Virus record (IMG/VR): IMGVR_UViG_3300045999_013278
Location: 1-64,000 of that record
Source: a virus
DNA length: 64,000 nt
Strand: one strand, 5' to 3'
Shown: positions 657 through 43,200 of the stretch, one piece after another
How positions within the stretch are numbered: position 1 is the stretch's first letter
Layout of the letters: each line of letters starts with the position of its first letter
The notes under the pieces: model-generated
What the model was told of the DNA's origin: nothing
Databases searched by the model: none
The model's input: only the letters and a program-made list of their open reading frames with translations
Position numbers and translations under genes: made by a program

Positions 657-1715
657 TTACCAGTTTACCTTACCGCTGCCATTTTGTACGGGCGCAGGTG
701 GTGGGGTAGGTGCGACACTTCCCCATTGTGGAGGTTGTGCAATACTTTGTTGAGCCTGTTCTAAAGGAGTAGATTGGGGTAAGTTTTGGGCTTGCTGCTG
801 TTGGAATGCCAGGAATTGCGCCATCATTTCAGGACTTAAGCCACCAACTACGGGAGGGGTTTGTACTTGGGGCTGTTGAGATGGCTGGGGGGTAGTCTGA
901 GGTTGAGGTAAGTTTTGAGGCTGTTGATATTGTTGATAATTTTGGGGAATAGGTTGCTGGGGTTGAACTACAGGGGTTGGTTGTTGATATTGTTGGGGTA
1001 AAGATTGAAATTGTTGTCCCCACTGTTGTTGTACTGGAGGTTGGGGCTGGGGAGTGGGTGTAGTTTTTGGCTTAGGTTGTCTTGGTGTAAGTACAGCCTG
1101 TCCAGTTAGATGTTGATTAATTCTTACGATCACGCCAGCCGCAGCATTAGCATCCATGTGACCCTGTTCAGAAAAAACTCTCTCGCCGGAGTTTTTCCAA
1201 ACGTCAACTAGTAATACTTTTGTTGCGCCGATACTAGCCTTAGTAGGATCGTAAGAAGGCTTGTCAACTAATCGGGAAAGTGTGAAAGTGAATGGTTCTA
1301 ACAATTCATCTGGCGTTAATGAAGCCAGAGCCTTAAGGAATGACTCAGTAGCTTTATTTAACTTGCCGTTATCATCATCAGACCAACCCAGATAAATAAC
1401 GTAAGTTCTGTTGCCGCAGTCAATCCAAAATTCTAACTTCTGTTTGTCAACTCCACCTGTAGTAGTGTCAATTAAATTAAGAAACTTAAGCTTACATTTA
1501 ATCGCAGGTTGAGGAATAGGAACGCGGACGTTGTTATCTAAAGCAACTAAATAAGGCGGACGACCCGCGCTACATTCTTCGTAGCCAGGGAAAAGGTATT
1601 TTACGGCGTTTTGGTTTTCTGGGATTGGGCAAAAGCCCAATCCATTACTATTGCTGCCGCCACCTAAGACTTGGGTTAGTGCTTGGGCTAATTGTTGGAG
1701 TAGTTCGTTGGACAT
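657..1715 (-). CDS. Hypothetical protein with a globular N-terminal domain and long Gln/Pro-rich tail (start probably MSNELL)
   Basis: ORF track; the upstream ATG at 1751 overlaps the -10 box of the predicted promoter. Confidence 0.7.
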   Translation of the reverse strand: MSNELLQQLAQALTQVLGGGSNSNGLGFCPIPENQNAVKYLFPGYEECSAGRPPYLVALDNNVRVPIPQPAIKCKLKFLNLIDTTTGGVDKQKLEFWIDCGNRTYVIYLGWSDDDNGKLNKATESFLKALASLTPDELLEPFTFTLSRLVDKPSYDPTKASIGATKVLLVDVWKNSGERVFSEQGHMDANAAAGVIVRINQHLTGQAVLTPRQPKPKTTPTPQPQPPVQQQWGQQFQSLPQQYQQPTPVVQPQQPIPQNYQQYQQPQNLPQPQTTPQPSQQPQVQTPPVVGGLSPEMMAQFLAFQQQQAQNLPQSTPLEQAQQSIAQPPQWGSVAPTPPPAPVQNGSGKVNW

Positions 1716-1746
1716 AATCTTTAATTTTCTTGAGCTTATATAAAAT

Positions 1747-1775
1747 ATCATACTCTATCCCTATACCGTCGTCAA
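1747..1775 (-). promoter_or_regulatory. Sigma70-type promoter with phage motif TTGACGACGGTA
   Basis: TTGACG-17 nt-TATGAT on the minus strand. Confidence 0.8.
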
Positions 1776-1891
1776 GTAGTTTTAGTAAAATTATTTTAAA
1801 AGCATATACTTAATGTAATTGTAAAAAAAGAGGTATGGTAGTATGCAAGGACATTTTTTTAACCTTGTTAGGTGTCCTGGGCAAATAAACA

Positions 1892-1920
1892 ATAAAAAAC
1901 CCGCCATTTCTGACGGGTTG
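1892..1920 (-). terminator. Rho-independent terminator
   Basis: AACCCGTCA-GAAA-TGGCGGGTT followed by TTTTATT on the minus strand. Confidence 0.75.
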
Positions 1921-2041
1921 GGGTGATACTTTTTAAAATCCTTGTCATTCCAACTTCATAAGCTTCGCTAATTTCCGGTTTAATAGTTGAATATCAGTTT
2001 CATCCTTTAATCGGTAGATATCCTGATTCTGACAAAAATTT

Positions 2042-2229
2042 TCTCGCTATGCGAGAGGGATAAGACAAGAAAAGAGCAAAAGTGCATAGTGCTATTAAGT
2101 CCACGCCGCACCACTACATACAACCCGAAAACCGATATTGTAGCTGCCGTAGTCGAGATTGAAGTAGTCACGATAAGCAGAACGGCAATTTTCAGGATTG
2201 CTGCCCCACGAACCACCGCGCAGCAGCCT
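2042..2229 (-). other. Orphan DGR variable-region-like cassette (FGE/CLec C-terminus) with downstream hairpin
   Basis: Minus frame reads RLLRGGSWGSNPENCRSAYRDYFNLDYGSYNIGFRVVCSGAAWT* (stop 2095-2097); variable codons are NNC/NNT; hairpin TCTCGC-N3-GCGAGA at 2042-2056. Confidence 0.75.
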
Positions 2230-2243
2230 TCTGTGTAGACGCT

Positions 2244-2609
2244 TTATTCTATCCACTCTAAAAACTCTATTTTCATCTTTACAGATTGCTTGAACAGTCT
2301 GTAGTCAAACTTAGATGACAGCATCAGGTTCGATTCATAGGGCTTTATGCCTTTACACCAACTAACAGATATGTGAGGATATTTGTTAGCGCAGGGAATA
2401 TGATCAGGAAGTTTGACAGCTACAGCTTGTATTTTGCCGTTCCAAGCTTCATATAAAGTTGTGGCTTGGAACTCTAAACCCTCCCACTCTTTCCAGTCTT
2501 GGCGGCCAACCCCAAACTGGAGTGTTGTATGGTGGGGACTCCCCACGGGGTAGAGTGGGGAAATTATTAGGGGCGACTGGATAACACCCCACAGGATACC
2601 GTTAGTCAT
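2244..2609 (-). CDS. 2H phosphoesterase (cyclic phosphodiesterase-like)
   Basis: Two Hx(T/S) motifs, PHHTTL and PHISV, about 50 aa apart. Confidence 0.65.
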   Translation of the reverse strand: MTNGILWGVIQSPLIISPLYPVGSPHHTTLQFGVGRQDWKEWEGLEFQATTLYEAWNGKIQAVAVKLPDHIPCANKYPHISVSWCKGIKPYESNLMLSSKFDYRLFKQSVKMKIEFLEWIE

Positions 2610-2967
2610 CTAAAGACACTAACGAATATACAATCCTTGTTTTTATGTCGGTACTTTGTTCTGTTAGTGGTAAGTCCACTAACTCGGAATCAAACAAACT
2701 GACTTTGATTCCTAAGTTTGTTAACTTAATTAAAGTCAGTCCCGTGACTGAAGAGGTTATTATTTGATCGCCTATGTTTAAGGCGATTTTAATCGTGCGG
2801 ATTATATCTTTATCATCGTAACAATATTCTATCTCTTCGACAATTAAATAATTTCCTTCTTCCAAATAAAGGTCGAAAGTATTACCTTGACTTTCTCGCT
2901 CGTAGGAAAAGTCGGGATTAATCCCGAAAAGTTCGTTAAACTCTTGTGAAATAAAAGAATAAATCAT
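2602..2967 (-). CDS. Hypothetical protein (start MIYSF)
   Basis: AGGAG RBS at 2973-2977; the longer ORF start overlaps the ribozyme. Confidence 0.65.
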   Translation of the reverse strand: MIYSFISQEFNELFGINPDFSYERESQGNTFDLYLEEGNYLIVEEIEYCYDDKDIIRTIKIALNIGDQIITSSVTGLTLIKLTNLGIKVSLFDSELVDLPLTEQSTDIKTRIVYSLVSLDD

Positions 2968-2997
2968 TGTTACTCCTAAGTGGGTGTATGTAAAGTG

Positions 2998-3065
2998 ACT
3001 TCCCACGACTACCGGGGTGGTAGTTTCGGACGGTAGTCAGCCGTCCATCATCAGGTGGGTTGAAG
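2998..3065 (-). ncRNA. Type I hammerhead ribozyme
   Basis: CCCAC-CUGAUGA-U-GGACGG(cugacua)CCGUCC-GAA-ACUACC(acccc)GGUAGU-C-GUGGG; three stems pair; predicted cleavage after GUC between 3007 and 3006. Confidence 0.9.
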
Positions 3066-3386
3066 CTAAAAAGTAAAAGGTTGCCAGCCCGGCTTTATCC
3101 TACGCCTTTTGAGACTTTCTTCTTCTTCTTTTAATTGTTCCTCTAAGAAATGTCTGGAATAAGTATCCATCCCGTCTTCCATTACAAAGGTGTCGCCCAA
3201 GGGGGCGCGTTCTATTGGAGTCAGTGGTGTCAGCCACTCATGATCATGATCCACTTTTCTCAACTCCCCAGCAAATTTTAAGCTGGGTGACTTGTGCTGT
3301 CCTATGTAATCTTTATTACTTACTGTTACGTAAGCATACGAAATCAAATGATAAGTATATCCATCTACTACCAGTATTGTTTCCAT
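3066..3386 (-). CDS. Hypothetical protein
   Basis: 106-aa ORF in the minus-strand cluster. Confidence 0.65.
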   Translation of the reverse strand: METILVVDGYTYHLISYAYVTVSNKDYIGQHKSPSLKFAGELRKVDHDHEWLTPLTPIERAPLGDTFVMEDGMDTYSRHFLEEQLKEEEESLKRRRIKPGWQPFTF

Positions 3387-3407
3387 TTTATTTTGCTCTT
3401 TATTTAC

Positions 3408-3473
3408 AAAAGCAGTTTACCGACGTGCTTAGGTCGTTTGCAATCAGTTTGCGGATCTTTCATGATCCGCAAA
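3408..3473 (-). ncRNA. Predicted hairpin plus H-type pseudoknot in intergenic RNA
   Basis: UUUGCGGAUC/GAUCCGCAAA hairpin, then CGAC-cu-AAGCA-c-GUCG-guaaac-UGCUU. Confidence 0.5.
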
Positions 3474-3478
3474 TAACA

Positions 3479-3706
3479 CTAAAAGACATCTACAACAGGA
3501 CTGCTGTAGCCATAACGGGCTGACCAGCTTAAACCTGACCATGTAGTGACACGGGTGATTTTCCCGTTTTTCACTTCAAGTCTTGCTTGTTCTGTGGGAA
3601 CTTCACCAAAGTGAAACTCGTCATTTTTGGGAAAATCAGCACCCAGTAAAGTCTTGAGTGCTTCAGCACTTTTCCAATTAGCGATTATAAATTCTTTAAC
3701 GTCCAT
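3479..3706 (-). CDS. Hypothetical protein
   Basis: 75-aa ORF, CAGGA RBS, directly downstream of a promoter. Confidence 0.7.
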   Translation of the reverse strand: MDVKEFIIANWKSAEALKTLLGADFPKNDEFHFGEVPTEQARLEVKNGKITRVTTWSGLSWSARYGYSSPVVDVF

Positions 3707-3736
3707 GTCCTGTAATTTGTTTCACTCTATATTTAG

Positions 3737-3765
3737 AGTCTAGTAGACTTATTCCAATTTGTCAA
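3737..3765 (-). promoter_or_regulatory. Canonical sigma70-type promoter
   Basis: TTGACA-17 nt-TAGACT. Confidence 0.7.
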
Positions 3766-3974
3766 GTGGTTTTAGAAAATATTTTCAGGATAACCAATAA
3801 CGCCCTAGGATCACCATCTAGCAGTGCTTCTAGAAATTCCCCATACATAGGATAAATGTTTTCTTTTTGCCGAAAGAAAAAGCCGCCATTTATCAGCAAC
3901 TCGTCCCAGTGTGCTTTCTTGTCTCTGGGCAGACGACACTGGATCTTAACTCTATCTTCACTCGGTCGGGGCAT
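3762..3974 (-). CDS. Small putative ribbon-helix-helix DNA-binding protein
   Basis: N-terminal RVKIQCRLPRDKKAHWDEL strand-helix pattern; GGAG RBS. Confidence 0.45.
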   Translation of the reverse strand: MPRPSEDRVKIQCRLPRDKKAHWDELLINGGFFFRQKENIYPMYGEFLEALLDGDPRALLVILKIFSKTT

Positions 3975-4185
3975 TTGGGATTAACTCCACTAGATATATC
4001 TAAACTATAGACTATAGCAGAAAATCTGTAGATGATCCGACATTTGAATTGCGGCTTTAGTTTTGCTTAAATGCTATTCTCCATGTTGCGGATCAGCTTA
4101 CCAGATGGACAATCTCCATAATTATCTGTTTCAATGGGTAATGGGTATCGGCATTTTAGAGGCTTTTGCCCGTTTTTATATTTGA

Positions 4186-4362
4186 GCGCGATCGCAAAAT
4201 GGTAAAAATCTTAAAACGCAGAGCGTCATGCAATGGGGTCAGACAGTTTTCTTTACTATAAGGATTTTGACTGACGCTTCATATAACTTTACATATTTTA
4301 AAATCCTCCAAAACCTTACTGTATAAAGATTTGGAGGATTTAGTGTAATTTGCCTGACGCTT
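4186..4362. repeat. Dispersed repeat copy 1 (CGTCAGG-box family), just downstream of dnaE
   Basis: Homologous to 10755-10838, 28532-28603 and 57299-57460; contains AAATCCTCCAAA/TTTGGAGGATTT inverted repeat. Confidence 0.8.
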
Positions 4363-4367
4363 TTAGT

Positions 4368-7300
4368 TTACCAAAAACCTGCCGGCGCAGTTTGGGGATG
4401 TTCCCACATATTTACCTGACGTGGCGCGAACTCATATCCTAAAATTGTCATTTCTATGATTTTTGGCCTATCACCGTCACTTAAATTTACGGTTATTCCC
4501 GCCGTCAAACATGATGTTAAAAATTCTTTCCCCTGAGTGCCGTCACGCAAAAATACCTCCAAAACACACCCTGTTTTTTGCATAATTCTAAGGAAATGGT
4601 CAGTCCCTCCCGTCTGTTTGTTTGTGAGAACTTTATTTTGGATGATTTTGCCTGACGCTATGCGATCGCCATATTCCCCCTCAAAGGCTACTATTAAATT
4701 TAATTCATCTAAGCACTTTTTAACTTCATTTAAGCTTAGGACTGCTTTGCAAGTATTACTGACCTTACCGTTATATTCACCCTTAGTTACGTTAAAAGCT
4801 AAAGGTTTATATTCCAATACTGAAGTTTGGATTAGGGTATTAAACTTGGTTAATTCTTCGTTAAACACAGTAATGTCATGACTTTCCCCATTTTCATCAT
4901 TCACCATGAGAAATACCATTAAGTCGCCATTTCTTGTCGTAAAGGGCTTGTAATTCGTGACAATTCCCGTTACCCATTCACTTTGGGGTAAGTTTAAATT
5001 TAAGTTTTGGAACGGGTTGACGCTTACGACCGTCCCGATCAGATCCTTCTCCACTTCTACTATTTTTTCCGTAGTCCTTAAAGTAGGTTGGGGAAAATTA
5101 AAATCCTTACTCACAAGGTAAGTTTTAAATTCTTCTACGTTTAAAGTTACTTCCCCCTCTCCCCCGTTTTTTAATGCCCGACGTTTTAGTGTTCCCTTAA
5201 AATAACTTAAGGCTTTAAATAAAACCACTAAACTTTCTTCTGGAAAAATTTCATCCCCAAAAAACCCTAAATTATTTAAGCTAATTACTACACCTTTATC
5301 ACCACCACTTCTTAGGCAAAAATCCACAACGCCACTATAAGGGTAATTCTTAACTATTTCCTCCGCAACGCTTACGCCCAGTCCCTTAATATTAGCTAAA
5401 CCTAAATTAATTCCCTCTGGAGTTAGGAAACATTTAACCCTTAATTCTGCCCACATTTTAGGGAGGATTATATTAAAGTGGCGTTTTGTATTTTTAATCC
5501 ACTCTGCTGACTTCTCAAATGATTTTGAGGACACGGTAATTCCGGCTGCCCAAAATTCCCTCGGTGCATAAACCTTATAAAATGCACTAATTAAGGCTTG
5601 ATACCCATAAGCATAAGTGTGGGATTTATTAAAACTGTACTCAGCCGAAGCTTTAACTTCTGACCATAAAGCTAATGCTAATTCTTCACTTACCCCGCTA
5701 TGAGTAATTGCGCCCCCCACAAATTTTTCCTCTTGCGCGGGCATATCCTTAATTTTTTTCTTCCCAATTATTTTCCGTAAATCATCAGCTTCAGCTAAAG
5801 AATACCCTGAAAGTTTTTGAGCCATAAGCATAATTTCCTCTTGGTAAAGCATAATCCCAAAAGTATCTTTAAGCACTTCATCTACGATGGGGTGAACCTT
5901 TGGAGTACCCAAAACCCTGTTTCTGACATAAACCCTATCGCTGCCACTGTCTAAACATCCTGGACGATTTAGAGCGTTTACCGCCGATAAGTCTTCAAAG
6001 TTATTTGCCCCTATTTCTCGCAATAAATTTGAAGGAACTTTACCCTCCATCTGGAATACGCCAAAAGTATCCCCCTGTTTTAACATGGCGTAAACTTCGG
6101 GATAATTCCCTAACTCATTAATTACAGGAATTGTACAATTACTTTCTTTAAGTAATGCCTCTATTTCTAATTCTTGGGATAAACCTGTAAGTCCTAGAAC
6201 GTCAAATTTAATAACGCCCATTTCCTCAAGTTCGTCTTTATCGTAAACGGTGGTAATTTTTTCCTCGCCGCCGTCCCAGACTAGGGGAACGTAATCCTGT
6301 AATTCTTCCGAAATACAAATTCCGCCCGCATGAACTCCGCTTTGTCTTTCCCGTCCCTCTATAAATTGTGCTGCATGAGTTATGGCTATTCTTTCCTCTT
6401 CTGATAATTCATCGGAGTGGAAAAATTTATAAAATTCCCCACCCTCATCCACTAATAATTTACTAATTTTTGGAGGAACGCCCCTAATAGTTTTGAAATA
6501 CCTCTTGGATATTTCCGTAGCCTTACGCCAACTTAAGTTGTGTGTCCTGAAGGAATCTGCTAAGGCACTGCCAGCCGCACTTTTAGTGACTGTACCGACG
6601 GCTGCAACATTGTACCGACCCCATCTTTCCCTTAAATGTTCCACTACGGCATCCTTCCCTTCGCCGTTCATATCCGTGTCAATGTCGGGCATTGCTTTAC
6701 GCCCAGGATTGAGGAATCGCTCGAACATTAGCCCGTGTTTGATTGGGTCAATATCAGTAATTTTTAAACAGTAAGCCACAATTGACCCAGCCGCAGAACC
6801 CCGTCCTTTCCCAACTTTATGGCCAATTCCCCTCACAAAACTACAAAAATCTTCCACGATTAAAAAATAATCTGCGAAACCCATTTCTGAGATTACTCTC
6901 ATTTCATAGTCCAGTCGTTCCCATAACCCAGGACTTAAAGCTTCGGGAGGGTAACGGTTAAACATCCCGTCAGCGCACTTTTGCTTAAATATTGCCTCGG
7001 CATTGGGAGAAAATTTAATTGGCTTAACAACGTTAAATAAGCTGTAATCCTCAAACTTATCCGCGATTTTTAGGGTATTATCTAGGGCTACGTTAATCTC
7101 CTCTGACGATAACCCAGAATTGTCATAGAAGTGTTGGAAAATTTCTTCCCTCGTTTTTACATACTCCTCACCGGTGTACTCGAAGTTATTAAGCCTTTCC
7201 GATCCTAAAGTGGCATTACCCTTCATGCCTATACTTAACGCGAGTGTTTGACTAAACCAATCTTCCTTACCCAAGAAGTGAGCGTCGTTGGTAATTATTC

Positions 7301-7910: not shown

Positions 7911-7983
7911 ATTTTTAAAAATGTTTTGTGTAAATTTACCCTAGCACACTCTACCGTCGTTAGGCAACTATTTTTATTTACAA

Positions 7984-8019
7984 AAACTACTTGACATCCC
8001 TACCGTTGTCAAGTAGGAT
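7984..8019. promoter_or_regulatory. Overlapping opposite-strand promoters forming an inverted repeat
   Basis: Plus TTGACA-17-TAGGAT; minus TTGACA-17-TAGTTT; arms CTACTTGACA/TGTCAAGTAG; extra motif variant at 7952-7964. Confidence 0.7.
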
Positions 8020-20954: not shown

Positions 20955-21206
20955 CTAATAAGTATCGTGTCCTAATGTTTTACCTTTCGGCTCAGGTCTG
21001 TTAACCCGCCATTTTTTAACATCTTGCGGGAGAAATTTTTTAGGAGCGTTTCCATTCCAAGAAGCCATCACATATCTTTCTTCTAGATTTACTCCCATTA
21101 TCGTTACCTCAAATAAAAAGTTTCTTTTAATGGTTGTCTTGCCCATTCTTTGACGCTCAATACTAAATACAATTTGCCCCGGTTTTAGTCTGTTTATGCT
21201 TGCCAT
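20955..21206 (-). CDS. Hypothetical protein
   Basis: ORF in operon. Confidence 0.6.
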   Translation of the reverse strand: MASINRLKPGQIVFSIERQRMGKTTIKRNFLFEVTIMGVNLEERYVMASWNGNAPKKFLPQDVKKWRVNRPEPKGKTLGHDTY

Positions 21207-21538
21207 AATCCTAAAATCTTACCTGCTTCTTTTAATTTCTCTAAAGGGATATCGTTAAAGTTTTTGTTTTTAACTTTCCAATTAAACTCGCGCCTAAAGT
21301 TTTTCTCCTGCCAATCTTCTTTAGTAAGAAAAATTGTTATGTAATAGCTAAGTCCGTAATGAGGGAAAGTTATGGTTAGGGGAAGCCGTTCTTCTCTACC
21401 CTCCACCATAATGTAAAAAAATTTAGTCCCCACTTTTATGATTGGGGTGTAATATTCTGCTTTTACTTTATCATTTCTGCCATCCTTTGTGACAATATAT
21501 AGCTTGTCACCAACTTTTAACTTTAACTTTTCTGCCAC
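21194..21538 (-). CDS. Hypothetical small beta-barrel-like protein (similar to 60071-60475)
   Basis: LKVGDKLY...KVGTKF. Confidence 0.6.
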   Translation of the reverse strand: MAEKLKLKVGDKLYIVTKDGRNDKVKAEYYTPIIKVGTKFFYIMVEGREERLPLTITFPHYGLSYYITIFLTKEDWQEKNFRREFNWKVKNKNFNDIPLEKLKEAGKILGLWQA

Positions 21539-22651: not shown

Positions 22652-23911
22652 TTAATTTAATTTAATTCTCGCTACGATTGCCAAAGATCGTCTACTGAGT
22701 TGATCAAGTGATAGACTCAACCTTCCCGATACTTTTCTTAAAATATTAGCTGCTCCGTTCAAATCTGCATTTACGAATGAACCATCGCCCGATTCATACA
22801 ATCCACGCTTAACACGCTTTCCTGATGCTTTCCACCCGTCTGGTTTTTGACCATAAACAGGTAGGGAGTCTCCATCGAGAAAACTAGCTTTTGATGTATA
22901 AGCCTCTTCGGTTTCTTGAAATCTAATACCGTGTAAATCGCATAGTTGCATCAGCCGGGTTTTGAGTTTACCTAACGGCATTTGGACAAACTTTTGATTA
23001 TTAATTCGCCCCATGTTAGCGTTAGATTTAAAACCCTCGTTCCAACCAATAACTAATGTACCAATGCCGTATTTTAAGCAATGATCAATAATTAATTTTG
23101 CAGCTTTATTAACACCATCCCGCATTTGATGGTTACGTTTACGGGTTACACAGTCTAACCAATTGTCCCAATAATCCCCCGGTTTCCCTTCTTTTCGTGT
23201 TGATACTTTTTTATTCCAAAGCTGGTTCATTGACTTCATCGAACGGGCATCAATCAAGAGGGAATTACCCAATGTATCAACACAAGCTGCTAAATTATCA
23301 GCCGTTCCCAAGTCAATAGATAGAGCTTGATTAATGTCTAAATCATGCTGTTGTTTCTCAACTTCGTAAGACATCTCTAGATAAAAAGCACCGTTTTTAG
23401 GTAGGATAGTAAACTCCTTAACATGAGCTATATCTAAATTTGACGGCATCGGTAGAAAAAATTCAGAAATTCCAAACCATCTTTTAACCGTTAGTCCCAA
23501 CGAAAATCTAAGTTGTCCATTAACTAGAGTTGGTTTCTGTCCTCCACTATGAGGATAAGCAACCTTGAAAAGTTTAGAACCTGTTAGATAGCCGGGTACT
23601 TTAGGCTTAAAGTGTAATTGTCCTTTGATAAACAAAGAACGTAATTCTTTAAAAGATTTGAAGGCTTCTGTTACAGATAATAAAGTTTGTTGTGCGGGGA
23701 TAGATGGCATCGATTGAGCAACCATAGTTTTAGACACTGAAGGCTCGTAAATCAAGTCGAACTTACCCGTTAACAACTTTCCAGTTTTTAAAAATGTTTG
23801 TCTAGCGAAATAAACACCACTGTTATACAGCTTCCCTGACTGCTGACAGAGATATTCTAATACTGCCTTTGTTTCATTATCGGGAGACAACAAAACCTGT
23901 TGTACTCCCAT
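22652..23911 (-). CDS. tnpB: TnpB RNA-guided endonuclease (no Zn-finger cysteines seen)
   Basis: LYNSGVY HTH, SIDLG, EEAYTSKAS, NADLNGAANI; start may extend to 23965. Confidence 0.92.
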   Translation of the reverse strand: MGVQQVLLSPDNETKAVLEYLCQQSGKLYNSGVYFARQTFLKTGKLLTGKFDLIYEPSVSKTMVAQSMPSIPAQQTLLSVTEAFKSFKELRSLFIKGQLHFKPKVPGYLTGSKLFKVAYPHSGGQKPTLVNGQLRFSLGLTVKRWFGISEFFLPMPSNLDIAHVKEFTILPKNGAFYLEMSYEVEKQQHDLDINQALSIDLGTADNLAACVDTLGNSLLIDARSMKSMNQLWNKKVSTRKEGKPGDYWDNWLDCVTRKRNHQMRDGVNKAAKLIIDHCLKYGIGTLVIGWNEGFKSNANMGRINNQKFVQMPLGKLKTRLMQLCDLHGIRFQETEEAYTSKASFLDGDSLPVYGQKPDGWKASGKRVKRGLYESGDGSFVNADLNGAANILRKVSGRLSLSLDQLSRRSLAIVARIKLN

Positions 23912-24020
23912 TGCTTTTTTATTTTTTGCCACCAAGTTACGATTTATGAGAAGTTGACTTCTCAAGAATAATTGATTAAGCTAGTATTGTCAATAGCTAT
24001 CAAGAAAACAACAAGAGAAT

Positions 24021-24422
24021 ATGTTAACGCAAGAAGACTATAAAACCCACAACCACGTTAAATTCCTGGTTAATTACCATTTTGTTTGGATACCTAAACG
24101 ACGGAAAAAAGTTTTAGTAGGAGAAATAGCAACAAGAGCGAGACAGATTTTTGCTGAACTGGCTATAGAAAAAGGTTGGGATATTTTAGCTTTAGAAGTA
24201 GCTCCAGACCATATCCACTTATTTATTAGCGTTAAGCCCACAGATACCCCACATTTAGTTATCAAGGCATTTAAAGGTCGTTCTAGCTTCTACTTGAGAA
24301 AAGAATTTCCCCAATTAAAAAAACTACCGTCTCTTTGGACAAGTAGTTATTTTATAAGCACCGCAGGGAATGTTAGTAGCGAATCCGTGAGGAGATATAT
24401 TGAAGACCCGCATCACGGTTAA
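24021..24422 (+). CDS. tnpA: IS200-type Y1 transposase
   Basis: YHFVWIPKRR, PDHIHLF (HUH), KGRSS, LWTSSYF, YIE. Confidence 0.95.
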   Translation: MLTQEDYKTHNHVKFLVNYHFVWIPKRRKKVLVGEIATRARQIFAELAIEKGWDILALEVAPDHIHLFISVKPTDTPHLVIKAFKGRSSFYLRKEFPQLKKLPSLWTSSYFISTAGNVSSESVRRYIEDPHHG

Positions 24423-34256: not shown

Positions 34257-37200
34257 TTACCTATCATATAAACCACCTCTATTTAAGCTACCTCCAGGAC
34301 GACGCTCTTGCTTGATTGTCTCCTGGATTTTTGCTTCTAAAGCTTTTTCAAACAAGGCTTTGTTAATGTTGCCGTTGCCACCCTCGCTATTATTAATGTT
34401 CACGTTAGGCGTAATGTTAATCGTATCTCCACTTCTTCCTACGTTATTAATATTCCCTAAACCTTCACCTATCATACCGCCGCTACTGAAACTCTCCAAT
34501 TTATTACTACTGTTTAGTTGATTCCATAACTTAGTTTCTTTTGGAGTTAAAACCCGTTCACCTTCGTTAGCGATAATTAAGCGTGGGTTAAACCCACTTA
34601 TCGCCCTTTCCTTGTTTAATAAATCCCCAACCATTCCGCCTTTAGCAAAACTAGGGAGCGTAGCTGAACCAAAGTCTAATCCGCCGTCTAAACCACCTAA
34701 GCTAAAACCATCGCTAAAGTCAAATGCTCCGCTAGAACTAAATGGGATTGCGCTACTGCCTTCGAGTATTCCAAAACTACTCTCTCCAAACGCTCCAAAA
34801 ATACTATCTAGCACTCCGCCATCTTTGCTACCTGCGCCCATAATATTTTGCAAGACTAAAGCCGCTTGTTGTAGCATTGTAGCGGACACACTTAGATTAG
34901 CTCCCGCGTTATTTAAAGCGATCGCGCCCACGTCTTTAGCTTTATTGCCAAAAATAATTTCAGTTAATTTACCAAATAGTTGGTTAGACAGTTCCTTACT
35001 TGCAACAGCAGCTAAATTGCTTAAAATACTTTTTGCAATCTCGCTAAAAGCATCGACTATACTTCTTTTACTCAACTCCGTCTTTTTCTTTTCTAAGTCT
35101 CTCTGCGCTCTATCTAATTCTTTTAGTTGTTTGTTATTGCCAGAATTTTGGTATGCGTTTCTTACTTCCTGAATATTACCGGACGTATTCATTATAATGT
35201 CGCGGCGTTTCTTAGCAATCTCATCTAGGGATTTATTAATATCCTGTAAATCGCCAGCGTTTTTATTAACAGAGTCGTTCATGAAAAATCCCTTTAGGAT
35301 ATTGTCAAAATCTCCTTTAATTCCGCTAATAGCCTCGGTGAACATATTAAATTCTTTCGCAACATTGTCTAGTTTTAACTCGTTTAGCTTAAGTAAATTT
35401 TCACTAAGTACAGATATTTCTTCTGCTGAATAATTACTTGATAATCCTAGTTTAGCTATTTCGTTTTTTTCCTTCTCAAAATCCATCTTAATTTGTGATA
35501 AAAGCTGTGCTTTTTGCAATTCCTTGTCTCTAACTCCGAACAAACCCCGACCTCTTATTATCTCGGAAGAAATTGCACTACCGGATGAATTTAATTTTTC
35601 CATCCTGCCGAGTTCAATGCCTCTATTTGTAATCGGCGCGAGCTTAGTTTGGTAAGAATTTTCTGCGTCAAGGTTAGATTTTTCTTTTCCGTAATTACGG
35701 AAAGCTTTTAGTCGTTCTATTAATTTTTCTTGTGGACTAAGTAAGGCGTTACCTTGAATTTCCAATAATTGTTTCTTGTAAGCATTAGTTAGCTCGTTAG
35801 TTTTTATTGTTAATTCATTGGTTAAGCTGACTAAACTAACCATCCCATCCTTATTGTCAATCGCAAACCGTTCATTGTCTAGTTGCAATGATTTCATTTG
35901 CGAGGCTTGGATAGTTTGCGATTTAGTTAATTCAATGCCTCTATTTGTAATCGGGGCGAGCTTAGTTTGGTAAGAATTTTCTGCGTCAAGGTTAGATTTT
36001 TCTTTTCCGTAATTACGGAAAGCTTTTTGTCGTTCTATTAATTTTTCTTGTGGACTAAGTAAGGCGTTACCTTGAATTTCCAATAATTGTTTCTTGTAAG
36101 CATTAGTTAGCTCGTTAGTTTTTATTGTTAATTCATTGGTTAAGCTGACTAAACTAACCATCCCATCCTTATTGTCAATCGCAAACCGTTCATTGTCTAG
36201 TTGCAATGATTTCATTTGCGAGGCTTGGATAGTTTGCGATTTAGTTAATTCGTCGTTAGCTTGCTTAATTCGCTTAACTGTATCGGCATAATTAAAGTTA
36301 AGATCAACGCCCTCTCTTTTAACAGAATTAACATTGAGAATGGCTTTAAATTCCTTCTGAAAAGCTGCTTCACTCATGTTACCGCCCTTACCTCCGCCAT
36401 CATAATAACGTCTTTGGAGGTCTAGTAATTGTTGGTATTGGTCACGGGTTAATTCTAGTAAGCTAATATTTCTTTGAAGTGATGGAATTTTTAAAACCAA
36501 CGGATTTAGCGGGTCAATTTCCTCAAGTTTTTGAACTAACTGTAACTGTTGTTGTAGTTGTTCAATAACTTTTGATTGTTGCGATATATCCTGCTCGCTT
36601 AATCTGAAAAACTCTTTTTTGTCAAAATCTTTCATTGACGCTTTGAGGATGCTATCAATATTGGATTTTAAAAATTTCAAGCTATTTTTAGCTTCTGCAT
36701 TTTTAAAAGCTGTAGCTTTAAAACTTAGATCGTTTGTCTGGATTGCGGCTGCGGCTAATCTCGGATCATTAGGAAATCTCTTCATTGCCAGATTAAATGC
36801 GGCTTGTAAGTCCGGTTTTTGCGCGATCGCTCCATCCGTTTCTCTAACAATTTGCTCTAACAACTCAACATCTTTCTCTAATTTGCGGCGTAATTCATTA
36901 AATTGGAGACTAAACATATCCGCATTACTCATGGTAGGAGATAAACCTTTTAACACCGTTATTCTAGTCCCTAGAGTAGAATCTTTCGTACTGCTGATGT
37001 CTCCTATCGCGGTTTTTTGAGAGGACATAATAAGCCTGTAAGCCTCTAGCCTTTGTTTTAGCTCATTTTCTCTGATTTGTTCAGGATTTAGGTTGCTGTT
37101 AGTTTGATTAGTTTGATATTGTTGGGCAGCGGTGTTTAATTTAAGTCTACTAGCTTGTGTTACCACTTCCTGCATTTGGTTGGGTTGAATACTTCCGCCT

Positions 37201-40200
37201 TGCATAACAATCTGCACCAATTGTCGCGCTGTATTGCCGTACCGATTTTCTGCTTTGGGGAGGTAATTACCTAGCGTAATATCACCATCCCCTACTCCTA
37301 ATGATGCGTTAGGATTCCCCGCAAAAACGGTAGATAAAACTTTTCGGAAGGAGTCTAGCTTTTGCCCTCTACTGTTCTGTTTTAAGTATTTCTGAACAAA
37401 GACTAATTGCTCTTGTGGACTCATTTGAGACAGAGCATCTATGTTTGTACCCAGTCCTCTAGCCGTAGCGGGCATGAACTGAATTAAACCTGTTGCGTTT
37501 GTGCGTTTGTTCCTAGCAGATGGCGAAAGTGTACCACCTGTTTCATACAGCATCGTTTTAAGTAGGTCTTCAGGGTTTGCTCCTACGCTTTGAGCTATTT
37601 TAGCCACGCTTTGCAGGAACTTGGTATCTATACGTGGATCTAGCCCTGGAACAAGCGGAACTGATTGGCGTTGTTTTGTTGGCCGTTGTTGAGGCATCGG
37701 CCAATCTGCTACCCTGTTCAGCCTCTTGTTGTCTTGTGTGGTATCAACAACCTTTTTGGTTGTATCCAATTTAATCCCAGGTACTTTAAAAGTTTTACCT
37801 AACTGGGTAGTTGGGTTTATCCTTTGACCGTTGATCGTTACCTCCCAATGTAAATGCGATCCTGTGCCACGCCCAGTGCTTCCAACTTTACCTATTACAT
37901 CACCTTGTTGTACAACGTCCCCAACCTTTTTAAGTAATTCAGATAAGTGAAAAAAGCGGTTTACAACTTTTTTACCTTCTGCGGTGATGGTTTCAACTTC
38001 GACCATATTGCCCGCACCACCATTCCAACCACCTTTAGATGTGATAACCGTGCCTGTCAGTGGTGCTTTAATTGGTGTTCCTGTAGCGTCTTCAAAATCA
38101 ACACCGTTGTGCATTTTTCTAGTGCCGTCCAATGGGTCTGTACGCATTCCGTACTTAGATGTTACGCGCCCCGGCGTAGGTCTAAGCAAAGTTTGATTAA
38201 CAGTCTGTAAATTATCCAATCCGTAGAACTTTTTGACAGCCCCTAACGGATTACTAACGAACTCTTTAGCACCCTGCTCTAACTGTTGCCCAGCTTTTTC
38301 CCCAAACACCGTGCTAACCGCCGATTGAACACCGCCCGCTAAATTTTGTAACAAGCCTTGTCCGGTAGCCAGGGAAGCTAACCAGTTGGAGGTTTTTATT
38401 CCCATATCAGCGATCGCAGTCCCCACGCGATCAAAGCCGTTCTCAAAAGACTTAACTAAATCTGCAAACTTAGTACCAAGACCTTCTATCCATGAGTTGC
38501 TAGTTTTACTTAAGTCTTTAATACTATCTTCAGCTTTTTTAGTTGCGTCTACAACACTGTTAGATAAGTTATTTATATTCTTATTAATTTCATCAACCGT
38601 CCTGTTTACGTTTTTAAGACTGAGATTAAAGTTATCGGCAATACTAGAATCTATCGGGATAATTTTTCCTGGTAAACTCCGTTGTAGTTCTATAGCTTGT
38701 AGCTGAATATCTTGGACGTTATTCTGGTAGTCAATCCTCTGTTTTCTTGCTTCTAGTTGTTGTTTCTCTATTTCGGTTGTTTGGGAAATTACATTAATAA
38801 TTCCCTCAATAAACTGAGTGTAGATATTGTCCCCAGCACCAATTAAAGCCTCTCTAAGTTTATTCTGTACTTTAGAGTTTTCAAAGGTCTTTTGTGCTTT
38901 CTCAAATTCAATACCCACAGCTTGAGATTCTCGAACGGCTGCGCGATAATAGTCGGTGACTTGCTTTGTTTGTTGGTAGAGGCTTTGGATTAAGTTATAT
39001 TTCTGCTCTGCAATTTGTTGTTGCATATCAACAGTTTGGATTTGCATTTCCTTAACTTTTATAAAGCCACTTAAAATCTCTTTTTCTTTACTTCCATCAA
39101 TACTTCTTTCTTGTGCAGCCTTTAAGGTGTCTATACCGCTTCTTTTATTTAAATTAAGTGTGCCTAAGACTCTATCTAAATCATTAACTTCCAATTGAGC
39201 GGACATCTCTTGGATTTGTTTTAAATTATCGGCAATTTTACCAGTCAGAGTGGCTTGAGTTTTTAAGTTGTTCGTATATTCCAGTTGCCCTGGTAAAACG
39301 TCCCCACTGCTGCCAAGGTTAAATAAATTAGTTTTCTCTAAACTTAATGCTGTATCTCTATATTGTCTTAGATCGTTAAACTTAGCTTCTAAGTTCCTTA
39401 TTTCAATTGCAAATTTTTGCATTTCTGTTAAGGAATTTTTAATAGCCTTAGTCATCTTGTCTTGTTCTTGAATAACTGTAGCTAAATCTTGTTCAGTTAC
39501 CTTAATTATTTTATTAATGTCGTCAATTTCACTTTGGTAAAGTTTGGGATTTTTCTTTAGTTCTTCCCAATACTCCAAATAAGTTTTTAAAGTTTCTACT
39601 TGTTTGTCTAAATTAGCTTTAGTTCCGCCAAACAATTCTAAGGGCTTTTCTCTCACCCCGCTTATTCTCTTTTCCCATTCTTGCAGAGATCTCAACGCTT
39701 CACTATTGCCGGGATCGTTGGCAATAATCGCCCGACGTTCCATTTTAATATTATCCAAAGATTTGTCTAGGAATTGAATGTCTTGGATAGCGTTTTTAAT
39801 AGCGGGAGAGTTACTATCTTTCAAAATATCGAAAGTGTTTTGTTGCCCAATAGTTGTTTGTTTGGCACTATCCTCCATTTGTTTTATTAGTTTTTTTGTA
39901 TCGTTATCAAATGGGTTAAGCGTAAATCCTTCTCTAAATGCTGAAAAGTTATCACGGCTAACTTTAGAGGATGGATTTAATAATTTTCTTTGTTCATTAA
40001 TAGACTGAGTAACGTTTCTAGTCTGTTCGCCAATTGCGCCGCTGCTATCCTTGAAATTCATCATTGTTTCATCAATAGCTTTCATCGCCATTGATAAAAC
40101 AAACATCTGAGCGGCTAAAGTTGCAATACTTTGACTCATTCCCAGCAATGCACCCTTAGCCCCTCCCGCAGAGAATAAAATTCCTTTTAAATACGTCGCA

Positions 40201-43200
40201 AACATTAACCAAACAGGACTTCCTAATTTAATTAAGGTAATCAGTAAGACACTTTTTAAGAGTTGGAGATTCTTAGTTACTAAATCTATACCAGACGCAA
40301 AAACACTTAAAGAAAAGTTTCTGAAAGGCAGTAAAGTTTTACCAATACTTTCCTGTAACTCAATTAAGGAATTATTGAATTTATTAGTTATCGCCACTGA
40401 AGAATTAACGGCATCTCCTACACCTGATGAAGTTTGCGCTTTTAATTGTTGAGCAAATTTTGGCAAAAAGTCCTCAGCTAAAACCCTGCCTGTACTTAAT
40501 AATTGGTTCATGGACTGGGTGGTTGTTCCGTAAGCATTTGCGGCGATTTGCGAAGCGTTGGGGATTGCTTCAGCGAGTTGTTGTCTTAATTCTTCTTGAG
40601 ATACAACCGTTTTTCCAGACATTTGCTCAAGCGCGGTAAAAGTCCTTTGCTGCTTGTCTAAATCTAAACCATAGACAGCCGAAGCTTGAGTGACTGCGCT
40701 AACGATCTGGCGAGATTGATAGCCTTCTATGGGAGTATCCTTAGTTGCCTGGAAGAATTTACTGCCACTTTCTAAAGTTTGGCTTAAGTCAACGTTGAGT
40801 CTTTTTGCTTCCGATCTTAAAAATGCAATATTTTTAGCACCCTCTGAAATGCTTCCAGAAGTGAACTTAATCCGTCTCTCTAAATTCTCAAAGTTAGCAG
40901 CGACTTCTATGCTTGCGGGAGCTAAATCTAAGATAATTTTCCCTACGGCCAACAAAGCTAGGACTTTAACAACATTACCTATAGAAGATTTAACAAAGTC
41001 CATCATCTCGCCAAATTTCTGGACTTTACTCATTCCCTCTACAAAACTATCAAAAGCCACCTTAGCCTGGATGAACCCTTCCTTAATTTTTTCTGGCATC
41101 TTAAGGAAATCTACAAATAATTCCTTAGCTGCAACAATACCGTTAGCTAACCCCTCGCCTAATGCTGCCGATACGTTAGGATTGGCGATTTCCTTAAGGA
41201 AATCTAAATAACCCTTAAATCTTTCCTTAGCTTCCTTAAATCCTGGGATACTTCCTAATCCTTTACTAAAGCCTCGGCTTAATCTTTCTTTATCTTTTTC
41301 TACGTCAGATGTAATTGTGCCATTTTCTACAGATTCTTTAATTCTGTTTATTTGTCTAATGAGCGATGGAATTATGCCATTGTTACCACCTTCTAAGAAT
41401 TGCAGACCCTTAGTGAAACCTTCACCTACGTATTTGCCCAACATTATGCCAAGTCTTACAAATGACTGGGAATTTTTCTTTACGCCATTTTCTATCGTAG
41501 ATTGTGGAACTTGGGGAATACCATTTGGTAGGAATGGGGGTAGTTGAGGGTTCACACCTCCGACGGTCGTGTTTGGAATCTTAAAAGATATAGAAGGTTG
41601 TGGAACTTGGGGAATTGGCGGTACGTAAGAATTTGGTAGGATTAGGTGACGTGAAGGATTTTGATTACTATTGGGAAGAATCAATGATTGATAAGAAGGC
41701 TGTGGAATATTTTTAGGAAGAATTGAATTGTATCCTCCTTGCGCCCATCCCATTCTGCCAGATGCAGCTAAAGTAGTTAGTGGGTTTGGCGAACTCCAGC
41801 CCCTTCCTCTTGGAAGAATTAGAGAAAAGTTAGTTACCGCATTTCCTGCACTTAAAAGCACATTTTTAAATGACTCTTGCGCTTCTGTTAACCGTACTAC
41901 ATGAGGCTGTTTTTCAGGAGGCAGTATTAGAGGCAGACCGCTTCCGGATCTTTGTCCTGGGAGTATTAAGTTATTGCCATTGTTAGAGTTGTTGTTATTA
42001 GGGAGAATTAATCCTTGGTAGGGTTTAAGAGGATTTGCCAACGGAATAGAACCGCTATATGGATTTAGCTGACTAGATGATGTAATTATTGGCGAAACGT
42101 TATTTTGTTTTTTATATTTAGCGTAGCTATCTGGAAGGATTACGGGAGACAGCCCCAAAGACCTATTTATCTCATCCGTAGAAACTACAGAAGATAAATT
42201 TTTAGAGATTTGTTTAGCAAAAGTTTTCCTTAACTCTTCTGTAGAAATGTTAGGGTTGTATAGTTTAGAGAACTCACCCGTTGGTGCTGAAAATACGCTA
42301 GTCGTTCGGGGAGAATTTAATCTTGTTGAGTCAACGCCAGAAGAAGGTTGGAGTAGTCCATTAATAGGAAGATTTGCTAAACTGCCTTTATTTATGTGCG
42401 GAAGTTTATTATATCCTGACGGTAAAACTAATCCGTTTTCTGCGCCTTTCCTTATCTCATCTACCCTTGAGGTAATTATTTTCTTAGCGTTATTTAAGGA
42501 TTCGTCCGCACCCACCCCCATAGCATTGCCTATATTTTGACCAGTTCTAATAGCCCATCTTGAGGGTGATTTAATTTCTAATTTTTCTTCTACTGTATCT
42601 ATTACTGTCTCTGCTAATTTTTCAGAAGATGTACGTAAATCACCTATGCTATTTTCTACACCTTTACTTACGCCCGCTCCTATATTTTCGCCAATTCTAA
42701 CTCCTCCATGCAACGCACTTATTCTCGCTGCTTTATTTTGAACAGAAGTTATTTGTGATAAAGAATTGCTTAGTTGTGAACTCTCTCTGCTTTTTGCAAA
42801 ATTAGGATCTATTCCTGCACTATTTCTTAATTTTGTTATATCAGCTTTGGCTTTATCTCCATACTGCTTAATCGCCGCAGATAACTCAATAACTGGAGCG
42901 AAGTTACCAGTTGTTTCTGCATCTTTTAACAGGGATCTTAGTTTAGCGAAATTAGCATTAAATTTAGCGGCTAATTCTTGCGCTGATTTTACCGCAAGCT
43001 TGGCTTTTTCTGACACCTCAATATCTTTACCGGATGTAGATTGAGTAACTGGGTTAACTCTAGTTACTTGATATCCGTTGGGGGTTGCGCTTACGGATGT
43101 AGATTGAGTAACTGGGTTAACTTTAATTACTTGATATCCCTTGGGGATTGTGCTTACTGGAGTTGGAGTATAAGATTTTTCAACAGTATAAGTTGGTAAA

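Follow-up and report, generated by a model that had tools for sequence, protein, structure and literature searches.

The source virus is uncultured, related to Aphanizomenon phage CL131 and represented by a 72.7 kb record that is approximately 65 % complete; the window analysed herein comprises 64 kb of that record. The locus under study is most probably the tail end of a minus-strand accessory-gene operon in a CL131-like siphovirus of filamentous cyanobacteria. Its features, given in the order in which they would be transcribed, are:

3765-3737, minus strand: promoter-like site, TTGACA-17-TAGACT (consensus scan, 10 of 12 matches; putative function)
3737-3773, minus strand: the same promoter-like site including the phage-specific extended −35 motif AAAACCACTTGACA, with a 17 nt spacer and TAGACT
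3479-3706, minus strand: ORF75, small protein (ORF list)
3394-3472, minus strand: structured spacer between ORF75 and ORF106, with one strong hairpin (3472-3449, 9 bp) and two weaker ones
3066-3386, minus strand: ORF106, small protein (ORF list)
2997-3062, minus strand: type I hammerhead ribozyme (sequence, descriptor, covariation and covariance model R1)
2968-3006, minus strand: 39-nt leader with which the predicted 3′ product of cleavage begins, followed by ATG
2602-2967, minus strand: ORF121, the cassette ORF 3′ of the hammerhead, with a ribosome-binding site in front (ORF list)
2244-2609, minus strand: minimal 2H phosphoesterase of 121 aa, CNPase/tRNA-ligase-CPD-like (motifs, Pfam, model)
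2112-2234, minus strand: 5′-truncated remnant of a DGR variable region (VR), comprising ~41 codons from the 3′ end of an FGE/C-type-lectin-fold target gene
1985-2111, minus strand: 3′ flank inherited with the DGR target gene, including a terminator-like hairpin and T-run at 2056-2042 (terminator scan)
1898-1919, minus strand: intrinsic terminator, a 9-bp stem followed by a T-run, which closes the unit

An earlier note on this DNA had placed a promoter at 3737-3765 and a terminator at 1892-1920, bracketing ORF75, ORF106, ORF121 and the 2H gene on the minus strand, and each of these elements is present. Promoter-like matches in the region as a whole are not above chance (13 against 18.2 expected). 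The extended motif AAAACYACTTGAC is above expectation, with three exact copies in the window (1771-1783 and 3761-3773 on the minus strand, 7983-7995 on the plus strand) against 0.3 expected, and none of 100 shuffled windows contains four or more matches to it. Transcription probably starts at this phage-specific promoter, near 3765. At the other end, the terminator at 1919-1898 is found with identical sequence at the same place in CL131, and the terminator-like hairpin at 2056-2042 falls inside the proposed single transcript, which may end at either of the two.

ORF75, ORF106 and ORF121 have no family match in Pfam or PHROGs, and the latter similarly returns nothing for ORF70 or the 2H protein. 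Homologues of the first two genes are found in related phages: one of ORF75 (72 % identity) is located between a hammerhead and the 2H gene in L007 and L022, and one of ORF106 (56 % identity) occupies the same position in L021. The spacer between them had been described as a hairpin/pseudoknot, of which the hairpin stands. The spacer RNA has an MFE of -28.2 kcal/mol (z -4.75), with 0 of 200 shuffles equally stable, and the part at 3439-3384 is 83 % conserved in L021; no T-run follows the strong hairpin at 3472-3449. Folding yields three hairpins, and the pseudoknot is rejected. The sole supported pseudoknot of the unit lies within the hammerhead.

Between ORF106 and ORF121, where the note had placed a hammerhead with a cleavage site at 3007/3006, is a genuine type I hammerhead ribozyme. 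It consists of:

3058-3054 with 3006-3002, minus strand: stem I, open-ended
3054-3048, minus strand: core CUGAUGA, with an extra U at 3047
3046-3041 with 3033-3028, minus strand: stem II, loop-closed
3027-3024, minus strand: GAAA
3024-3019 with 3013-3008, minus strand: stem III, loop-closed, with A3024-U3008 as the A15.1-U16.1 pair
3038-3035 (GACU) with 3000-2997 (AGUC), minus strand: pseudoknot of loop II with the tail

The core is complete (C3 U4 G5 A6 N7 G8 A9, G12 A13 A14, A15.1-U16.1 and C3007 as H17), and its nucleotides are invariant in all 24 relatives, save for the expected variation at N7 and H17. As C17 is position 3007, the cut is predicted between 3007 and 3006. A strict hammerhead descriptor finds this one match in 64 kb and none in 100 dinucleotide shuffles, covariance model R1 scores the window copy at 79.1 bits, and the MFE fold is a three-way junction. 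Amongst the 24 distinct relatives, 99.3 % of 408 cells are paired and 8 of the 17 pairs are compensatory, with a covariation score of 0.436 against 0.153 in shuffles, none of which (0 of 500) reaches the observed value; slid controls are 26-52 % paired and score no more than 0.131. All three helices covary, as does the pseudoknot, which is 93.8 % paired with compensatory changes in two of its four pairs (GC/AU exchanges). Another 41 distinct sequences, taken from other phages and in an alignment fitted to the model, are 97.4 % paired, with 11 of 17 pairs compensatory.

Rfam searches of the whole window at the gathering score, and of positions 1500-4300 at E-values up to 10, return no ribozyme and only chance-level matches, and four canonical hammerhead copies in L010 are likewise without a match. 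Where the RF00163 gathering score is 37, the type II relatives in L009 reach 36.7 and 31 bits, and the Rfam miss is read here as a limit of model coverage rather than a structural failure. A descriptor search of the window for type II hammerheads found none. An extra U after A9, immediately before stem II, occurs in 5 of the 24 aligned copies, that of the window among them, and could slow cleavage. Judged by its sequence, the transcript very probably processes itself at this site. Contigs from four metatranscriptome runs provide low-depth, partial cover of ORF106, ORF121, the 2H gene and the VR remnant, with DNA carry-over possible; one is a variant joining 2600 to 3041, and none interpretably spans or terminates at 3007/3006. 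As these libraries offer sparse contigs only, RNA ends cannot be shown from them.

Cleavage would leave a 3′ product whose leader carries, on the minus strand, GUGGG (3006-3002), CCCAC (2984-2980) and AGGAG (2977-2973), the first of which can pair with the second. We infer this pairing because CCCAC is unchanged in all 24 aligned relatives, with variation at the flanking positions. The resulting hairpin is the MFE structure of the leader, but a weak one (-6.1 kcal/mol, z 0.23); shuffles are equally stable, and a strong 5′ hairpin is therefore rejected.

The hammerhead is a member of a family of cassettes, each composed of ribozyme, leader and small ORF, that punctuate the operons of CL131-like phages. 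Up to four hammerheads occur in tandem, each ahead of a small ORF, several of these being paralogues of ORF121, copies of which lie 3′ of successive hammerheads in L010, L011, L012, L026 and L029. Type II hammerheads fill equivalent slots in CL131, L008, L009, L019 and L023, and exactly the hammerhead-ORF121 unit is missing from L019 and L020 (2H 98 % identical). The cassette is a mobile one, which across related phages has been copied, exchanged and lost. The word 'ribozyme' does not occur in the CL131 genome paper. What emerges is a well-supported hammerhead subfamily, unreported by Rfam, that punctuates accessory operons of cyanophages on bloom-forming Nostocales, and that is testable in the culturable phage CL131.

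The gene that follows, the start of which overlaps the ORF121 stop by 8 nt (ATGACTAA), had been assigned to the 2H enzymes, and the assignment is upheld by motifs, fold and family. Both catalytic motifs are present (HxT, H27 and T29; HxS, H79 and S81), with H26, H27, T29, H79, S81 and S83 invariant in 29 close homologues; in a wider sample of 55 diverse members, H79 never varies, and conservation of H27 and T29 is 90 % or more. Pfam tRNA_lig_CPD scores 32.1 bits against a cut-off of 23, covering only the second-motif quarter of the model, and matches 29 of 29 family members. The predicted structure (pLDDT 97.1, pTM 0.88) aligns 119 of its 121 residues to mouse CNPase (2xmi) with a Z of 12.2 and an rmsd of 2.3 Å. 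The other entries in the top 20 are mostly 2H enzymes, with four topoisomerase domains, and the top Foldseek matches listed are CNPase, RICH and Trl1 (6u05). PDB sequence searches with two 2H profiles give only sub-threshold Rnl and Trl1 matches (E 0.5-0.7). CNPase and the CPD domain of Trl1 are 2H phosphoesterases that turn 2′,3′-cyclic phosphate into 2′-phosphate. As a 2H of this branch would open such phosphates, the chemistry earlier proposed, in which the enzyme handles the ends made by the ribozyme, is possible. The most likely substrates of the protein during infection are cyclic-phosphate ends, whether of RNA or of nucleotides. The family to which the protein belongs is uncharacterised, minimal (~120 aa), CNPase-like and widespread in phages, and what this family acts upon could matter for conflicts over RNA ends or cyclic nucleotides.

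Downstream of the 2H gene, the sequence formerly described as a VR cassette is a true DGR variable region, although a 5′-truncated gene remnant rather than a cassette. Compared with the TR of a Dolichospermum locus (L073), it differs at 12 of 31 A positions as opposed to 4 of 79 non-A positions; L073 is a bona fide host DGR (Avd-RT-TR), in which the TR adjoins bAvd and RT, and belongs to the host genome, not to the phage. A mechanical 53-aa ORF (2256-2095) spans the remnant, and Pfam FGE-sulfatase matches its C-terminal end only, at 20.4 bits, which is under the 23.3 cut-off. Alignment with L021 reveals that the equivalent of L021:3377-4034 (~660 bp, the gene body) is deleted in the window, with a junction that has the look of a simple deletion at 3 nt of microhomology. 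The near-identical phage L019 retains the whole target gene with the same flanks, and whole genes are also present in L020, L004 and L021, the last with two in tandem. The remnant begins ~12 nt ahead of the TR-corresponding region and keeps the 3′ boundary sequence and downstream hairpin; this 3′ flank with its hairpin also lies behind target genes in two phages (L019, L049) and three Nostocales contigs (L096, L071, L073). The VR is what the ~660-bp deletion has left of a host-derived DGR target gene, namely its dead 3′ terminus.

No RVT_1 match indicative of an RT is found in the 72.7 kb record (~65 % complete), nor is an RT found in CL131 or in five other phage records with FGE genes, one of which is 92 % and another 100 % complete. 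Within the record there is no second copy of the VR stretch that could serve as TR, and no second FGE copy; the exact VR pattern has no match in IMG/VR, and no Avd match is returned by Pfam for window ORFs of at least 90 aa at E-values up to 1e-4.

As a separate observation, DGR target genes of host type, with an FGE/lectin fold, occur singly or in tandem in CL131-like cyanophages, with no accompanying RT found. Where phage loci are near-identical, the differences between them, and those from the Dolichospermum TR, fall almost exclusively at template adenines.

The central claim of the earlier note was that ribozyme, 2H enzyme and VR constitute one functional unit, to be tested by whether they occur independently in related genomes. 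They do. The hammerhead family is found in 34 other viral records, only one of which has a 2H match, and that a weak one (18 bits, with stops); amongst the six hammerhead-bearing records that are at least 90 % complete there is none. Complete relatives carry further hammerhead copies ~43 kb from the 2H gene, and distant 2H homologues (L017, L030, L031, L032, L034 and Synechococcus phage B23) have no hammerhead nearby, three of them with less than 600 nt of upstream DNA available; for B23 (2H 28 % identical), inspection by eye of 2.1 kb around the gene finds no hammerhead core. Similarly, a 2H gene lies within the available flanks of 1 of 12 phage FGE loci and is absent from those of the other 11, and 15 of 27 2H loci are followed by an unrelated gp124-like gene rather than FGE. 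As the 2H gene and the VR remnant travel independently of the hammerhead in relatives, the locus is a string of accessory modules, not one machine, and the alternative that the note itself had allowed for, an accumulation of unrelated accessory pieces, fits better. The outcome is a negative result of some consequence, in that an apparent 'machine' of ribozyme, end-enzyme and DGR dissolves into three independently mobile modules.

These distributions also bear on a narrower proposal, that hammerhead, ORF121 and 2H form one module in which the enzyme is a dedicated partner of the ribozyme, opening the 2′,3′-cyclic phosphate of the upstream fragment and thereby making cleavage irreversible or shielding the end from host RtcB or exonucleases. 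The resemblance of the 2H model to the CNPase/Trl1-CPD branch, which hydrolyses such phosphates, agrees with it, as does the presence of a same-strand upstream hammerhead in 20 of the 27 2H loci, where the 2H gene is typically the second cistron past the last ribozyme, an arrangement that persists despite differences in ribozyme type (I or II) and intervening ORF (CL131, L007, L009). However, the 27 loci are closely related, with 2H proteins 47-98 % identical; their shared synteny is therefore not independent evidence, and shared descent accounts equally well for the linkage. Given also the near absence of 2H from other hammerhead records, the copies distant from 2H in complete relatives, the 2H genes that stand without a hammerhead in the DNA examined, and a literature search in which titles and abstract openings describe no pairing of a hammerhead with a 2H phosphoesterase, we consider such a partnership improbable. 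Somewhat better placed, but still on the unlikely side, is a counter-defence role, in which the enzyme destroys cyclic (oligo)nucleotide alarms or heals the RNA termini that host HEPN or anticodon nucleases produce, its adjacency to the hammerhead being incidental. Acb1 is a phage 2H enzyme that destroys alarm signals of this kind, and is the second-ranked representative amongst structural matches to the model (7t27; Z 6.9, rmsd 3.8 Å, 12 % identity), with viral 2′,5′-oligoadenylate and cGAMP phosphodiesterases listed at Z 5.2-6.5. The 2H fold with both catalytic motifs, and a family that is widespread as stand-alone proteins of ~120-140 aa (329 representative clusters), with the nearest atlas clusters 63-100 % viral when counted over those few members that have a recorded taxon, are in keeping with this role, as is a polynucleotide kinase/phosphatase encoded ~1.7 kb away in CL131. 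Against it, the Z for CNPase is far above that for Acb1 and other 2H branches, and no Acb1-type match emerges from Pfam, PHROGs or PDB sequence searches. Moreover, there is no RNA ligase or PNK among the 46 window ORFs of at least 90 aa, no homologue of CL131 gp120 in the ~65 %-complete record, and no kinase or ligase fusion in the 13 longer family members scanned.

With regard to the VR, it had been suggested that the transcript releases an RNA carrying a DGR target sequence, and the remnant could on that basis be retained for a role at the RNA level, as a ribozyme-released decoy or acceptor for host DGR machinery. The start of the remnant just ahead of the TR-corresponding region, its host-shared 3′ boundary and hairpin, and the adenine-specific differences from the host TR would suit such a role. 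The hammerhead is, however, ~770 nt upstream with two intervening genes, so no discrete VR RNA would be released; the truncated form is limited to this one genome, its closest relatives (L019, L020, L004, L021) having whole genes; the junction resembles a simple deletion; and both RT and TR are absent from the record as searched. An RNA-level role is thus very improbable. A different possibility, which we entertain only tentatively, is that in the course of infection genes carried by the phage are diversified in trans by the host DGR, or that the phage turns this DGR to its own use, with the VR of the window a decayed member of such a set. Phage DGR targets that match host templates in the absence of a detected RT make this question of trans-diversification a testable one.

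Overall, the locus is best explained, with reasonable confidence, as an accessory operon that holds a genuine hammerhead, a passenger 2H gene and a dead VR remnant. In this arrangement the hammerhead within the ORF106-ORF121 spacer would fold co-transcriptionally, through its three helices and the loop II-tail pseudoknot, and cut after C3007. The upstream piece (ORF75-ORF106) would then end in the compact ribozyme with a 2′,3′-cyclic phosphate, and the downstream piece (ORF121-2H) would begin with a 5′-OH and the 39-nt leader, in which the freed GUGGG may pair with the conserved CCCAC just 5′ of the ribosome-binding site. Cleavage would in this way make the stability and translation of each half independent of the other, a role that has long been put forward for phage hammerheads that occur in clusters. 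The 2H protein would be a separate passenger, putatively a minimal CNPase/CPD-type 2′,3′-cyclic phosphodiesterase, translationally coupled to ORF121.

In comparison with known systems, the VR remnant resembles Nostocales DGRs with FGE/C-type-lectin-fold targets (Dolichospermum L071-L073) in its VR DNA scaffold, adenine-biased differences and shared 3′ flank and hairpin, and departs from that locus, which contains targets, bAvd, RT and TR, in that the phage record lacks RT and TR and the body of the target gene is deleted. The 2H protein shares two HxT/S motifs, the fold and an above-cut-off tRNA_lig_CPD match with the CNPase catalytic domain and the CPD of fungal and plant Trl1, but is smaller (121 aa versus ~210-250 aa) with 13-17 % sequence identity, and stands alone, neither a kinase or ligase domain nor such a neighbour having been found. 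Like Acb1, an anti-CBASS 2H nuclease of 140 aa, it is a small phage-encoded protein of 2H fold, although the structural match is much weaker than that to CNPase and has no counterpart at the sequence level. For the hammerhead, a cassette-type layout of clustered copies has been known since 2011, with a role proposed in cutting polycistronic RNA to gene-length pieces (Perreault et al. 2011, PMC3088659). The present copies resemble the clustered prophage and phage hammerheads of that account, which flank single genes, in having a canonical core, three helices and a loop-tail pseudoknot, and in their close spacing amid the small genes of a single transcription unit whose gene content varies. They differ from the clusters described there as a subfamily unreported by Rfam, found in CL131-like cyanophages, with an invariant stem I (CCCRC/GUGGG), an AAG tail, a conserved downstream CCCAC and, in 5 of 24 copies, the extra U. 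The HHphage ribozyme of haloviruses HF1 and HF2 is reported 13 nt ahead of a start codon (PMC3088659), and type I hammerheads in the 5′-UTRs of RNA mycoviruses are reported to enable translation (PMC13725137). In common with both, the ribozyme here lies directly 5′ of a coding region, such that cleavage makes the 5′ end of the translated RNA, whilst in contrast to these cases the predicted cut would expose a 39-nt leader with a Shine-Dalgarno site, in a DNA genome and a bacterial host.

The record to which the window belongs, a 72.7-kb IMG/VR virus record estimated to be ~65 % complete with the window as its first 64 kb, has Aphanizomenon phage vB_AphaS-CL131 (CL131) as its sole named relative in a search of the phage collection. 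A Pfam scan of 46 window ORFs returned a tailed-phage gene set that includes Pol III alpha, tail proteins, a prohead protease, RecJ, thymidylate synthase, dCMP deaminase and methylases. Elsewhere in the window, an IS200/IS605-type pair resides inside the phage genome at 22655–24419 (an OrfB/TnpB-like protein of 437 aa and a Y1 transposase of 133 aa), a 1127-aa ribonucleotide reductase-like ORF at 53913–57293 harbours intein-splicing and LAGLIDADG domains, and a single ORF of 4255 aa occupies 34257–47024(−). The unit under study comprises the following features:

3765–3737, minus strand: promoter-like site, by consensus match
Minus strand: ORF75, ORF106, ORF121 and a 121-aa ORF, the ATG of the last overlapping the ORF121 stop
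3062–2997, minus strand: spacer with a type I hammerhead, in the order stem I, CUGAUGA, stem II, GAAA, stem III, U, C17, stem I′
2056–2042, minus strand: second hairpin with a T-run, within the proposed unit
1919–1898, minus strand: terminator, with the same sequence in CL131

The four ORFs are arranged as the earlier note had described, and a promoter-like site and a terminator likewise lie where it had placed them; its picture of a single promoter and a single terminator bracketing the unit is, however, complicated by the second T-run hairpin lying inside. The −35 hexamer forms part of a 13-nt motif, AAAACYACTTGAC, with three exact copies in the window (1771–1783(−), 3761–3773(−) and 7983–7995(+)) against 0.3 expected, each preceding a transcription unit, and because of this recurrence the motif probably represents a phage-specific promoter element. 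Folding found none of the pseudoknot claimed between ORF75 and ORF106, the spacer RNA instead forming three hairpins (z −4.75). Scraps of the region are present as contigs in four metatranscriptome runs, although these are uninformative on RNA ends and possibly include DNA.

With regard to the hammerhead, the motif is complete and genuine, with cleavage predicted between 3007 and 3006. A strict descriptor hits the 64 kb just once, at this site, and 100 dinucleotide shuffles not at all; the same motif also occurs in intergenic spacers of related loci (collected via homologues of the 2H protein), with up to four copies in tandem. Across 24 distinct copies, 99.3 % of cells are paired and 8 of the 17 pairs display changes on both sides, giving a covariation score of 0.436 vs 0.153 in shuffles (0/500 reaching 0.436), with slid controls at or below 0.131. 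Loop II also forms a pseudoknot of four pairs with the tail that follows stem I, 93.8 % paired and with compensatory changes at two of the four; a loop–tail tertiary contact of this kind is described by Perreault et al. (PMC3088659). The window copy, with an additional U following A9 (a feature of 5 of the 24 copies), is the only match in the whole record to R1, a covariance model of this type I subfamily. In other phages, 41 additional distinct copies are 97.4 % paired, with 11 of 17 pairs compensatory, in an alignment that is itself fitted to R1. Rfam leaves the type I copies unreported and scores type II relatives at 36.7 and 31 bits, just below its threshold of 37.

Each copy precedes a small ORF, lying a few tens of bases 5′ of its ribosome-binding site and start codon, with an invariant GUGGGAAG after the cut site and an invariant CCCAC 12–17 nt further on; several of these small ORFs are paralogues of ORF121. 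In the phage loci L019 and L020, whose 2H proteins are 98 % identical to that of the window, exactly the hammerhead–ORF121 unit is missing. Comparison of L019:1280–1369 and L020:330–419 with window 3054–2602 places the cassette-less junction in the letters TGATGA, which the core of the ribozyme shares with the start of 2H; one RNA-library contig has a similar join, of 2600 to 3041. Type II hammerheads occupy equivalent slots in CL131, L008, L009, L019 and L023. CL131, a cultured phage, harbours unannotated hammerheads (L002:5694–5759 and 4669–4732; record positions 98381–98444 and 105173–105235), one being type II, just upstream of gp126–gp125 (2H), and two type I; the word ribozyme occurs 0 times in its genome paper. 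The subfamily, marked by a stem I GUGGG and an AAG tail, recurs in no fewer than 34 other viral records from IMG/VR (L110–L157), including complete genomes of 42–148 kb and three proviruses, often with two to three copies per locus. In a literature search on hammerhead ribozymes together with cyanophages, no paper, judged by title and abstract opening, deals with phage-encoded ribozymes. This ribozyme-using genome also encodes, at 21197–21538(−) and 60071–60472(+), a pair of small, possibly RNA-binding proteins whose domain resembles the C-terminal one of phage ProQ.

Both HxT/S motifs are conserved in homologues of the 121-aa 2H protein, and all 29 close homologues match Pfam tRNA_lig_CPD, 11 of them also matching HVSL/Usb1. 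Nearly all members of the family, which spans 329 representative clusters, are stand-alone proteins of 115–140 aa, and the longer ones scanned have no kinase or ligase fusion. The AlphaFold model, of high confidence at pLDDT 97.1, superimposes on the CNPase catalytic domain over 119/121 residues (Z 12.2, rmsd 2.3 Å), far above Acb1 (Z 6.9) and the remaining 2H branches; Foldseek agrees, with Trl1 among its matches. Motifs, domain matches and modelled fold together mark the protein as a minimal enzyme of predicted 2′,3′-cyclic phosphodiesterase type.

Downstream of 2H, a 53-aa ORF matches just the C-terminal end of FGE-sulfatase in Pfam, below cut-off. L004, L019, L020 and L021 have full-length FGE genes (targets of diversity-generating retroelements, DGRs) after 2H, one or two per locus. 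Alignment of the window with L021 runs to the end of 2H, skips the equivalent of L021:3377–4034 and resumes in the variable region (VR); L019 has the whole gene and the 3′ flank as in the window. The VR scaffold recurs in 59 stretches of Nostocales genomes, including template repeats (TRs) rich in AAC codons, and one Dolichospermum TR adjoins bAvd and a reverse transcriptase (RT). The remnant differs from this TR at 12/31 adenines and 4/79 other positions, and its phage relatives at 14–17/31 and 2–4/79, respectively. This record (~65 % complete) lacks an RT, as do CL131 and five other FGE-bearing phage records (two at least 92 % complete), and this record contains no TR copy. The stretch is thus a true DGR variable region that has been diversified, but in this phage it survives as a dead remnant.

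Intact host-type FGE-fold targets exist in phages at L019:1676–2455, L021:3380–5017 (two in tandem) and L039–L049, their VRs differing at template-adenine positions from the Dolichospermum TR beside bAvd and RT (L071–L073). An RT was looked for in five such records and not found. The pattern may stem from diversification in trans by the host DGR or from repeated recombination events with alleles of the host; among the matches listed, titles and abstract openings of literature on diversity-generating retroelements and cyanophages do not address RT-less phage targets.

The earlier note had united hammerhead, 2H and VR in one system. A hammerhead does lie upstream in 20 of the 27 loci holding a 2H family member, the 27 being close kin, and five of the seven without one have <600 nt upstream. 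Downstream of 2H, 15 of these loci have an unrelated gp124-like gene, 4 have FGE and 1 (the window) has the remnant, and complete relatives have extra hammerheads ~43 kb from 2H. An IMG/VR pattern scan returned 48 stretches, of which 11, in contigs already in the sets, were set aside; R1 confirmed hammerheads in the remaining 37 loci (46 matches). The 34 records behind these contain a 2H match in one case, weak and stop-interrupted, and in none of the six that are at least 90 % complete, whilst 2H occurs in the available flanks of 1/12 phage FGE loci. These elements thus turn up independently of one another, the very outcome that the note had set against its own proposal. In a literature search on hammerheads together with 2H phosphoesterases, no paper, judged by title and abstract opening, deals with a pairing of the two.

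Thus, whilst the observations largely stand, the integrating interpretation does not. The unit is an ordinary, if neat, case of hammerhead-punctuated phage accessory genes, with a 2H enzyme of minimal size and the decayed remains of a host-type DGR target as neighbours. Relatives of this subfamily may already be among the hammerhead alignments of PMC3088659, and the clustered hammerheads of that work share the same layout, known since 2011, and the same proposed role, the cutting of long phage transcripts.
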